From assembly GCA_051439425.1 (NCBI GenBank), contig JBFRWD010000158.1:1-49395 (forward strand): 49,395 bases of DNA. Direction: 5' to 3'. The notes beneath the pieces were generated by a model. The model had not been told where the DNA came from. It did no database searches and was given only the letters and a program-made list of their open reading frames with translations. The translations under genes were made by a program, and so were the position numbers. Source of the stretch: Synechococcus sp. Lineage in GTDB: Bacteria > Cyanobacteriota > Cyanobacteriia > Thermostichales > PCC-7336. This document shows positions 12,783 to 15,391 of the stretch, one piece after another. Position 1 is the first letter of the stretch, and every line of letters begins with the position of its first letter.

Positions 12783-13239
12783 GTCGTTCTCAAAGATCTT
12801 GCGGGTTCTGCGATTACCAGCTCATCACCGATCGCTGAATCTGCATTGGCCACCCCCGTCATCTTGCTGAACTTGATACGAAAAAATGATTTCCCCCGGA
12901 TAGATTCTTGGCATTATTTTGAGCTTCAAGCAAGACTAGACTCTAACAACTCTAGCCCGTTAATCGTTGCAGAGGGCTGCTTGCAGACAAATTCACCGAT
13001 CGGTTCTTTCATGCAGTTTGCTGAAGGGGCGTGGTTTCTTTTCCTTGTTGAGAAGGGTGGCAGTGGCCTAACTACCTGAAAGACGAAAAAGCACTGGCTC
13101 CAAATAGCTTCAAGGACACCAATACCATCGTTGAAATATTTTATACAGCAAGGAGCAAAACCCCTTTCTTCTCGAATTGTTGAGAATATGTAAAGATATT
13201 TGGGCAATGTAACCAAGGGGATGCTACGAGATGCTGCGC

Positions 13240-13440
13240 ATGAATATTTCTAACTCTACTAATGCATCTTGCTTGGTGATTACAGCCGACAATGAATATG
13301 ACTTGTCTGTAAAACGGCATCAATTAGAGCGACAGGGGTATGTTGTCAATCGGATTGGCAATTATTTGTACAACGTCCGTCACAGCACCGATCGGAGCCG
13401 GGCTCAATTGACCCTCAACATGCTGCGTCAGGCAGATTAA
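13240..13440 (+). CDS. small hypothetical protein (66-69 aa)
   Basis: ATG-started ORF with purine-rich leader (AAGGGG); plausible composition; no motif recognised. Confidence 0.4.
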   Translation: MNISNSTNASCLVITADNEYDLSVKRHQLERQGYVVNRIGNYLYNVRHSTDRSRAQLTLNMLRQAD

Positions 13441-13581
13441 GTTGCCCTGTTCTCAAACTCGAAAGCACTGTTAATACAGTCAATCTGCATTCGGTTATCC
13501 ACCTGCAGCTTTTGCTCGTTCGATTGTTAATCTAAGAACGAAAGCAGGATTTCTGCAAAAGTGAAAAATCAGGTTCTAGCC

Positions 13582-13815
13582 ATGAAAGTTCCGAACTGGA
13601 AGGCTAGCGGTCGGCAACAGGAAAAGGGCCGCAAGCGACATCGTCGCCGCCAACAAAAAGCCAAAGCGTTTAAGGCTTTGGTCAAAAAACTTCAAACCCC
13701 TCGGCAGTTGCCGGGGGCTTTTTGTACGACATCGCCTTTCATTTGTCTCGGTCAGCGCTCGTCGCTTCAGGTGACCGAATGCGAGACGGGGCTGCTCCAG
13801 TACTGGTTTTGCTAG
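13582..13815 (+). CDS. small basic protein with an internal terminator; candidate alternative ribosome-rescue factor
   Basis: MKVPNWKASGRQQEKGRKRHRRRQQKAKAFKALVKKL has 15 K/R in 37 aa; GC hairpin plus T5 at codons 39-47; hydrophobic/Cys-rich tail before TAG. Confidence 0.6.
   Translation: MKVPNWKASGRQQEKGRKRHRRRQQKAKAFKALVKKLQTPRQLPGAFCTTSPFICLGQRSSLQVTECETGLLQYWFC
13697..13723 (+). terminator. intrinsic terminator inside the 13582-13815 ORF
   Basis: CCCC(T)CGGC-AGTT-GCCGGGGG-C-TTTTT: 8 bp GC-rich stem, 4 nt loop, U-tract. Confidence 0.7.
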
Positions 13816-14032
13816 CAGGTTCATATAGCGATCGGCAATCCACTAAGTATGGAGAATTCCCTAACTACTTTTCTTTGCGGATCGAGTGTTTTCGCAGTCT
13901 CAACCCTCCAGACTATACAGCGGATTGCTATATTCTGCATCACATCGCAGCGAAGGGTAGGATTGTAATCCTGTTTTGCGCGGCTATCGTGCCAAATTGA
14001 CGAACGTTTCACCACTCAACCCACACTCCCCC

Positions 14033-15391
14033 ATGGAATGGACCCAAGGCCTCGCTGTTAATTTGACTATCTCGTCGCTGACCAATCGAGGAGATGGCAT
14101 CGGACATGTGGATGGACGAGCTGTATTCGTACCCGATACCGTGCCAGGGGATGAAATTTTAGCCAAGCTGGTGCGGGTCAAATCAACTCATGCGTTTGCA
14201 ACTCTCAAGCGGGTATTGACCCCTTCTGGCGATCGCATTCGGCCCGCCTGTATCCTGGCTCAAAAATGCGGTGGTTGTCAGTGGCAACCGGTGGGTTACG
14301 CAGCTCAACTGAAAGCTAAAGAGCAGTTGGTGGTCGATGCTCTTACCCGCCTCGGGCATCTGGAGCTACCTCAGGCTGCTCCTATCCTGGCTGCACCGGC
14401 TGCATTGCATTACCGCAATAAAGTGACGTATCCGATCGCCCGAGGAACTACTCAGCCTCTGAAGGTGGGGTATTTTCGCAAGGGCAGTCACAAATTGGTG
14501 AATGTCAATCAATGTCCCGTTCAGGATGAGCGACTTGATTCAGTCTTGCAGACTGTCAAGCAAGATTTGCAGTCCACCGATTGGCCAGCTTATAACGAAC
14601 GCAATCAAAAAGGAGAGTTGCGCCACCTCGGCTTACGAATCGGACGCCGCACGGGTCAATTGCTCATTACTTTGGTGTCCAAAACCGATCGCCTACCCGG
14701 TTTGGACATTCTGGCCAAAACGTGGATGCAAACCATCCCCGATCTGCAGGGGGTGTGTCTCAATCTCAATCCCAAACGCACCAACGCTATTTTTGGACAA
14801 GAAACGCTGTTGGTTGTCGGAACGCACGAGTTGGTAGAAGACTTTGCCGGATTGACGATCGCGATCGACAGCACGTCATTTTTTCAGGTGTATACAGAGC
14901 AGGCGGAGCGTTTGCTGGAATGGATGCGCGCTCAGCTAAAACTGAAAGGGAATGAAACGCTGATCGATGCCTATTGCGGGATTGGGACGCTGACTCTGCC
15001 GCTGGCGAAAGGGGTGAAACAGGCGATTGGGATTGAAGTGGTGCCGAATGCAGTGCAGCAGGCGAATCGGAATGCCAAGCTCAATGACATCGACAATGTG
15101 GCGTTTGTGGAAGGCACGGTAGAGGAAATGCTGTCGTCGTTACCGTCTGCTGATGTCGTGCTGCTCGATCCGCCCCGCAAGGGATGTGATCGCTCGGTGT
15201 TGGATATTTTGTTGCAGCGAACCCCAGCAACCATTGTTTACGTCAGCTGCAATCCAGCCACTTTGGCCCGCGATTTGGATGTGTTGGTTAACAGTGGCCC
15301 CTATTCATTGGACACCTACCAACCGGCCGACTTCTTTCCTCAAACGGCTCATGTTGAGACCGCTGTAATTTTGCGCCTTTCCAAGCAATAG
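14033..15391 (+). CDS. rlmD: 23S rRNA m5U1939 methyltransferase RlmD
   Basis: N-terminal TRAM domain, C.....CGGCQWQ Fe-S motif, SFFQV, DAYCGIG, LDPPRKG, YVSCNPATLARD, DFFPQT.HVE. Confidence 0.95.
   Translation: MEWTQGLAVNLTISSLTNRGDGIGHVDGRAVFVPDTVPGDEILAKLVRVKSTHAFATLKRVLTPSGDRIRPACILAQKCGGCQWQPVGYAAQLKAKEQLVVDALTRLGHLELPQAAPILAAPAALHYRNKVTYPIARGTTQPLKVGYFRKGSHKLVNVNQCPVQDERLDSVLQTVKQDLQSTDWPAYNERNQKGELRHLGLRIGRRTGQLLITLVSKTDRLPGLDILAKTWMQTIPDLQGVCLNLNPKRTNAIFGQETLLVVGTHELVEDFAGLTIAIDSTSFFQVYTEQAERLLEWMRAQLKLKGNETLIDAYCGIGTLTLPLAKGVKQAIGIEVVPNAVQQANRNAKLNDIDNVAFVEGTVEEMLSSLPSADVVLLDPPRKGCDRSVLDILLQRTPATIVYVSCNPATLARDLDVLVNSGPYSLDTYQPADFFPQTAHVETAVILRLSKQ

Follow-up and report, generated by a model that had tools for sequence, protein, structure and literature searches.

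A stop-less mRNA that gives rise to a short basic peptide backing up transfer-messenger RNA (tmRNA) has been described for ArfA (PMC6881298; PMC11633108). A similar arrangement is found in the Bacillus subtilis gene brfA (yqkK), which has 71 codons and an in-gene terminator and whose product of ~62 amino acids (aa), without the residues encoded past the terminator, is a rescue factor dependent on release factor 2 (RF2) and held down by trans-translation (PMC6881298). Release factor (RF)-dependent back-up factors appear to be narrowly distributed, ArfA being limited to certain beta- and gamma-proteobacteria, ArfT to certain gamma-proteobacteria, and BrfA to certain Bacillaceae, and the authors of the BrfA study expected that more rescue systems await identification (PMC6881298). 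With regard to cyanobacteria, a survey of 55 genomes detected ArfB in only 25 (PMC4235212). In this study, we analyze a DNA stretch of 49,395 nucleotides (nt) from Synechococcus sp. (GenBank assembly GCA_051439425.1, contig JBFRWD010000158.1, positions 1 to 49,395 of the forward strand; GTDB genus PCC-7336), hereafter the window, in which an initial annotation had proposed a small basic gene at position 13582 as a candidate ribosome-rescue factor transcribed as a non-stop mRNA. At the level of sequence, this is a coding gene with a terminator inside its reading frame, a layout that is found phylum-wide, and it has no relation to known families. We propose, by analogy with arfA and brfA, that it may encode a cyanobacterial rescue peptide controlled by trans-translation.

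Results

The 13582 gene consists of a 77-codon open frame on the plus strand, running from an ATG at 13582 to a TAG at 13813–13815, and its product has 15 Lys/Arg among residues 1–37 by count on the translation; both agree with the initial annotation. The open reading frame (ORF) listing places the start of this frame upstream, at GTG 13561 (84 aa), but we take ATG 13582 to be the start because the relatives and the DNA conservation begin there. No Shine-Dalgarno sequence is obvious before this ATG. The conserved basic domain that defines the family comprises residues 1–41 (13582–13704, plus strand), as delimited by hmmsearch and alignments, the open frame, codon entropy, and AlphaFold2. Within the frame lies a predicted intrinsic terminator, detected by a terminator scan and by folding, which is composed of a stem-loop of 8 pairs (7 G-C) with the loop AGTT (13698–13717, plus strand), its pairing being kept in the genus, and of the U-tract CTTTTTG (13718–13724, plus strand; tail CTTTTTGTAC), at which conservation within the genus ends. 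The folding energy of 13680–13735 is −17.9 kcal/mol, and 96 nt separate the stem end from the stop codon, in keeping with the hairpin and U-tract that had been placed inside the frame about 90 nt before the stop. The part expected to be translated from the putative terminated, stop-less transcript is ~47 codons (13582–13722, plus strand), as suggested by the lack of any stop between the ATG and the U-tract and by the invariance of F47 described below. The rest of the frame to the TAG (13723–13815, plus strand), in which Phe, Cys, and Leu directly after the hairpin are the translation of the T-tract, is unconserved, as its tails vary in sequence and length among relatives and the DNA alignment collapses past the U-tract, and it is probably off the main transcript.

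AlphaFold2, run on a 101-row alignment, returned a single long helix at residues 14–38 with a mean predicted local distance difference test (pLDDT) of 78, rising to 94 for residues 21–30, and the peptide of ~47 residues is modeled as basic and largely helical. The GGQ motif is absent from these 47 aa. The extended −10-like motif TGTTAATCT that the initial annotation offered as a promoter element is indeed present at 13525–13533 (plus strand), but its promoter role is not established: the promoter scan of 12800–14300 returned no sites, and the DNA alignment indicates that the motif is not kept in the three congeneric loci.

In a search of 60 relatives, clear homologues were confined to the three remaining genomes of the genus, with E from 8e-16 to 3e-21, and their alignment covers residues 1–48 or 1–38 only. 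The hairpin occupies the same in-frame place in all four loci of the genus, none of which has a stop before it, and the frame continues for ~30, 28, 5, and 12 codons past the U-tract before a stop is reached. A terminator stands ahead of the first stop in 3 of the 4; in the fourth the hairpin is present and the U-tract is weak. Three further close relatives from the protein database bring the set to seven, with total lengths of 52–85 aa. These are invariant to about residue 37, F47 (encoded by the TTT of the U-tract) is invariant in 7/7, and they diverge thereafter. The DNA alignment of the genus gives the same picture, with conservation that begins at the start codon, ends at the U-tract, and is absent from both flanks. 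The changes within the stem preserve pairing (U-G to U-A, G-C to G-U, and C-G to A-U) and 5–11 of the differing codons per pair are synonymous. The initial annotation had asked whether conservation ends near residue 40, and the end lies at about residue 40–47, exactly where the hairpin and U-tract are placed; beyond the hairpin, the tails are unrelated among relatives.

The family extends well beyond this genus. A profile search over 1.84 billion representative proteins gave distant relatives of 40–83 aa, and iteration over whole genomes exposed a large family, for which a survey profile of 19 rows was built. Its consensus is MxQRLKRWESPRxEGRNDKGxGGSARQRQxxKQxQxLRxKLK, the domain measures 42 aa in the main subtype, and the genus of the window forms a divergent subtype, 23–37% identical to the main subtype across the whole domain. 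Of 401 genomes drawn evenly across the class, 226 had a match to the family (210 of the 361 of good quality), as did 116 of the 169 genera; a single copy was almost always present, and the family reached 56/71 genomes of one taxonomic family and 67/90 of another. It was not found in 40/40 genomes of family f3 nor in 12/12 of genus g4, which is not proof of absence since the first-look filter leaves some candidates unscored. In the protein database 1275 clusters match at E up to 0.001, and among the 120 of them listed all named organisms are cyanobacteria, all entries are called 'hypothetical protein', and no Pfam domain is recorded. The ESM Atlas neighbors are only unnamed clusters, cyanobacterial for the main-subtype query. 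A query with the window subtype found no relatives among 383 candidate stretches of JGI metagenomes. Cultured strains are among the names on matching proteins, including Synechococcus sp. PCC 7336, Calothrix sp. PCC 6303, and Thalassoporum (Pseudanabaena) PCC 7367; in Synechococcus sp. PCC 7336 the gene is located at G002:C1:1382202-1382360. The family is unnamed and unannotated, being listed as 'hypothetical protein' or left uncalled and having no Pfam or NCBIfam model. The initial annotation had rightly singled out the gene, yet by treating it as a local case it underestimated the extent of what is a phylum-wide family. Two copies of the family gene occur in each of three genomes (G277, G389, and G236). 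In G277, a stop-bearing 39-aa copy of the window subtype (L042) accompanies a main-subtype copy whose frame is open to 115 aa, which hints at two paralogous subtypes under different control.

By its pattern of codon variation, the 13582 family is a genuine protein-coding gene. Among 113 members the entropy at codon positions 1, 2, and 3 is 0.74, 0.53, and 1.47 bits, and 55.6% of the aligned codon pairs specifying the same residue use different codons; the third codon positions are therefore the most variable, as expected of a coding region. Over the domain, all 115 of 115 members keep the gene frame open, as compared with 13–36 of 115 for the other five frames. An antisense ORF of 82 aa (13576–13824, minus strand) was rejected: its first codon position coincides with the third, variable position of plus-frame codons, and the minus frames are open over the domain in just 16–36 of the 115 members.

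The layout in which a terminator precedes the stop codon recurs across the family. We examined 117 distinct loci, made up of the best-scoring 30 per search and of 40 regions hand-picked from the genome survey to cover more families. In 100 of the 117, the first stop in frame is located 9 nt or further past the stem (median 54 nt, maximum 274 nt). It falls in the U-tract, no more than 8 nt past the stem, in 5 loci, inside the hairpin in 1, and before the hairpin in 2; 7 loci have no terminator by our rule, one of them being the congeneric locus with the weak U-tract, and in 2 the frame runs off the locus. At least one locus with the stop after the terminator is present in each of the 19 families sampled. 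The hairpins have a median energy of −17.75 kcal/mol and start at a median of 24.5 nt past the domain, and a terminator is found no more than 200 nt downstream of the domain in 109/117 loci, against 0.18 expected per window of that size from the background of the same loci. The hairpin sequences are wholly different between lineages, and the residues past them are unrelated even between close species. In the 32 loci of the Pseudanabaenaceae (f5), compensatory double changes occur at 9 of 15 stem pairs, with few pairs broken. A predicted 3′-end-forming element in frame before any stop codon is conserved among homologues, and the terminator ahead of the stop that the initial annotation had suggested looking for is seen in 3/4 loci of the genus as well as in the wider sample, with a minority of exceptions. 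The same annotation had named homologues with a stop before the hairpin as evidence that would speak against a non-stop mRNA; the genus has none (0/4), but a minority of the wider relatives do stop before any terminator.

Searches against described families gave no relative of the 13582 protein. Neither the ORF nor its stretch matched Pfam at E up to 1 or NCBIfam at E up to 10, the stretch had no Rfam match at E up to 1, and a single-sequence query with the protein found nothing among PDB chain sequences. A family profile run against all PDB chains gave only FliA (E 1.9, with E up to 10 allowed), although chains of BrfA and ArfA are presumably among the solved structures. The ArfA model PF03889 (ArfA, YhdL) matched neither the window protein (E up to 1) nor 19 family members (E up to 10); a lone match to it elsewhere in the genome of the window, at E 0.05, was dismissed as noise in an unrelated frame. 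Alignment of the family with E. coli ArfA (K-12) by hhalign reached a probability of 1.8% over 8 columns, in which GNWEASGK was placed on PNWKASGR. The statement that the protein is no obvious ArfA or BrfA homologue is thus borne out, as the Pfam, hhalign, and PDB-chain searches detect no such relation.

With regard to the rescue machinery, the genome of the window encodes SmpB and carries two tmRNA genes above the Rfam cut-off, at G000:C145:10794-11188 (L175) with the tag ANNIVAFSRKPAAVAVA and at G000:C135:1423-1814 (L176) with the tag ANKIVAFSRKPAAVAVA. The two tags differ by one residue, and the two genes could be a true duplication or could come from two strains in one bin. Genes for RF1 and RF2 are present, that of RF2 being clipped by a contig end, and a separate gene encodes an ArfB-like protein that combines GGQ with a basic tail. 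A complex prediction with the family alignment and the partial RF2 of this genome returned no answer (score 0.00), which is evidence neither way.

Relatives were also found on two IMG/VR records (119 kb and 208 kb) by an alignment headed by the main subtype. Both are of the main subtype and have an ordinary stop (L189:801-929 and L190:801-920), and one of them adjoins a deoxycytidine monophosphate (dCMP) deaminase gene. Terminase_6N and Gp23 were found in neither record, and as the Gp23 search was also silent in control genomes the viral nature of the records is unconfirmed. Viral scans headed by the window protein gave 0/123 and 0/71 candidate stretches, and a tblastn search with a Nostocaceae member gave no matches against 50,697 phage records. 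The suggestion in the initial annotation that similar proteins occur in cyanobacteria and cyanophages therefore stands for cyanobacteria but only weakly for cyanophages, for which it depends on these two records with ordinary stops.

Just upstream of the gene is a 69-aa ORF (13231–13440, plus strand) with a best Pfam E of 0.035, which is not significant, and no NCBIfam match. The downstream gene (13976–15391, plus strand), which begins 250 nt past the terminator, encodes a protein with TRAM and (uracil-5)-methyltransferase domains of the RlmD/TrmA type. Another terminator-like site, on the minus strand at 13661–13681 (7 pairs, 4 G-C), lies in the conserved coding part and probably just reflects the coding sequence AAAGC...GCTTT.

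Discussion

It seems that the 13582 gene follows the logic of arfA and brfA, from whose precedent we infer the RNA 3′ end, the tagging, and the rescue activity in the scheme that follows. The transcript most likely ends at the intrinsic terminator (13698–13724), in frame and before any stop codon. Ribosomes would translate ~47 codons to the 3′ end of this transcript and stall there, and the tmRNA-SmpB system would tag the peptide for proteolysis, keeping its normal level low. When trans-translation is saturated or failing, the untagged peptide would be released and would accumulate, and its free basic helix might then bind the vacant mRNA channel of non-stop ribosomes, allowing a release factor to free them as ArfA and BrfA do. 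We consider the non-stop, tmRNA-gated design to be probable. For the ribosome-rescue function itself our confidence falls slightly short of an even chance, while the overall explanation, that the 13582 gene is an independently evolved non-stop-encoded rescue factor controlled by trans-translation, strikes us, on sequence and on analogy, as evenly balanced. More tentative still is the broader suggestion that cyanobacteria may have their own single-copy rescue peptide, a basic helix of ~40 residues present in more than half of the sampled genomes and wired to trans-translation, which in some lineages and on the two viral-classed contigs would have been made constitutive by a gained stop.

The likeness to BrfA concerns a small basic protein without GGQ and a rho-independent terminator inside the coding region (PMC6881298), and that to ArfA a short basic peptide with an unconserved hydrophobic tail past a hairpin. 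BrfA is limited to a subset of Bacillaceae (PMC6881298), whereas the 13582 family is cyanobacterial and far more widespread. Unlike ArfA and BrfA, its members have a variable hydrophilic linker after an N-terminal basic helix. The element that forms the 3′ end also differs, being a canonical terminator in the 13582 gene, whereas RNase III cleaves the RNA of E. coli arfA. There is some resemblance of motifs, in that E. coli ArfA has KGKGS, which we take to be the defining motif of the ArfA family, and GNWEASGK, as compared with PNWKASGR and KGRK in the window protein and KG[KR]GGS in the main subtype. The segment PNWKASGR is encoded at 13594–13614 of the window and was compared with E. coli arfA (L188:4435-4650, minus strand). 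However, KGRK and KG[KR]GGS are placed differently relative to the NW.AS motif than KGKGS is in ArfA, the two motifs being in reverse order, and we regard the likeness as a curiosity. The Francisella factor ArfT and the C-terminal tails of ArfB and SmpB detect an empty mRNA channel by means of charged alpha-helices (PMC6514570), and the 13582 protein is likewise modeled as one long basic helix. ArfB differs in bearing its own GGQ, which the 13582 protein lacks, and we found no report that ArfT, ArfB, or SmpB is made from a stop-less mRNA.

Another small basic protein of cyanobacteria was also considered. cS24/Ssr3189 (COG5794) is small, very basic, partly helical, cyanobacteria-wide, and ribosome-associated, is encoded outside ribosomal operons, and has invariant K9, R14, and N15 within its conserved first 23 residues; homologues were reported in Prochlorococcus and picocyanobacterial Synechococcus, and C-terminally FLAG-tagged Ssr3189 was readily detected (PMC13640635, a 2026 preprint). 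Identity with cS24 was rejected, as the window protein has S9, E14, and K15 at these positions. Through its RRM-domain neighbor gene we located a separate, very basic ORF of 45 aa with K9, R14, and N15, lying downstream of the RRM gene (G000:C76, L185:1047-1181, minus strand), which is likely by its residues to be the cS24/Ssr3189 orthologue; hhalign gave a probability of 0.8% for this ORF against the 13582 family. At L182 and L183 (G000:C32 and C34), RRM-domain genes are each followed by a basic ORF of 60 aa that looks like ribosomal protein S21 by eye.

Not all of the evidence favors a non-stop rescue factor. Taken by itself the window hairpin is within chance, being unexceptional (z = −1.87; 9/200 shuffles fold equally well) in a region, 12800–14300, that holds 2 terminator-like sites against 1.6 ± 1.2 expected from shuffles, and it is the comparison with relatives that makes the case. 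Several aspects of that comparison weigh against it in turn. The 117 loci are kin and a non-random sample, so that their counts overstate independence, and the terminator finder was our own script, which accepts a hairpin of ≤ −10 kcal/mol provided that 5 or more T occur in the 8 nt at which it ends. Of the four congeneric loci, two have weak U-tracts (TCTTTCAG). The stretch from domain to terminator is stop-free in the gene frame in 106/109 loci, but it is also stop-free in frame +1 in 91/109 and in frame +2 in 37/109, which makes this frame control a weak one. An ordinary stop right after the domain, with no nearby terminator, is found at L042, L045, L047, L052, L055, and L164, in the copies named Synechococcus PCC 7502 and Pseudanabaena PCC 6802, and in both IMG/VR copies; as some relatives have ordinary stops, the stop-less state is not obligatory for the family. 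Such relatives, together with the open +1 frame and the weak U-tracts in two congeneric loci, would be accounted for if the gene encoded an ordinary small basic protein and the hairpin were a leaky terminator, a processing site, or a stabilizing stem, with enough transcripts reaching the stop or the extra residues being harmless, and with the stop-less look arising by neutral drift beside a terminator. We find this improbable. The stop lies beyond a strong terminator (median −17.75 kcal/mol) in 100/117 loci and in 19/19 families, the tails vary in length and sequence even inside one genus, and the stem shows compensatory changes. Cyanobacteria are not known to have Rho, so intrinsic terminators are their main terminators. 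Moreover, a constitutively needed product would lose function when tagged, and therefore the stop-less state should be selected against. That the locus is anything other than a translated gene starting at ATG 13582 has a very slight probability: the unit is short, with ~200 nt from promoter to terminator, and lacks an obvious Shine-Dalgarno sequence, but variation at third codon positions is about double that at the other two, 115/115 members have the frame open against 13–36 of 115 for other frames, members only 23–37% identical to the window protein still align over the full length of that protein, and no Rfam family matches at E up to 1.

A different question is whether a peptide regulated in this way must act in rescue. 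It may have the same regulation but another job, for instance in stress or hibernation as a peptide that binds ribosomes or RNA, in signaling growth arrest, or simply as a sensor or decoy of tmRNA capacity. The evidence from the architecture fits this equally well, and nothing ties the 13582 peptide to a release factor. ArfA, BrfA, ArfB, and SmpB insert a C-terminal basic tail into the mRNA channel, whereas the conserved basic part is N-terminal here, and cyanobacteria own other small basic ribosome-associated regulatory proteins such as cS24/Ssr3189 (PMC6881298; PMC13640635). On the other hand, arfA and brfA, the sole genes of such design known to have been characterized, encode rescue factors (PMC6881298), a basic helix without GGQ as modeled here would suit an mRNA-channel binder, and a single-copy gene present phylum-wide suggests a core role in translation. 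We therefore regard another job as unlikely, though far from negligible, and retain the non-stop-encoded rescue factor as our working proposal.

In the literature outside subscription journals, we found no paper on a cyanobacterial ArfA/BrfA-like factor or on the 13582 family. What appears to be new is the arfA/brfA logic in an unrelated, phylum-wide family, to which the function would be assigned by analogy. One practical consequence is that gene callers append false C-terminal tails to members of this family. Strains in culture that possess the gene would allow a direct test of the proposal. If it is true, the 13582 family would join ArfA, ArfT, and BrfA as a fourth rescue family that depends on a release factor, would be more widespread than any of these, and would be the first in a phototrophic phylum. 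It would show that the design of a terminator before the stop has evolved repeatedly, which would make this design a search key for new rescue factors. A phylum-wide family of arfA/brfA design would also close the gap in back-up rescue in cyanobacteria and would give a natural read-out of the trans-translation load in phototrophs.

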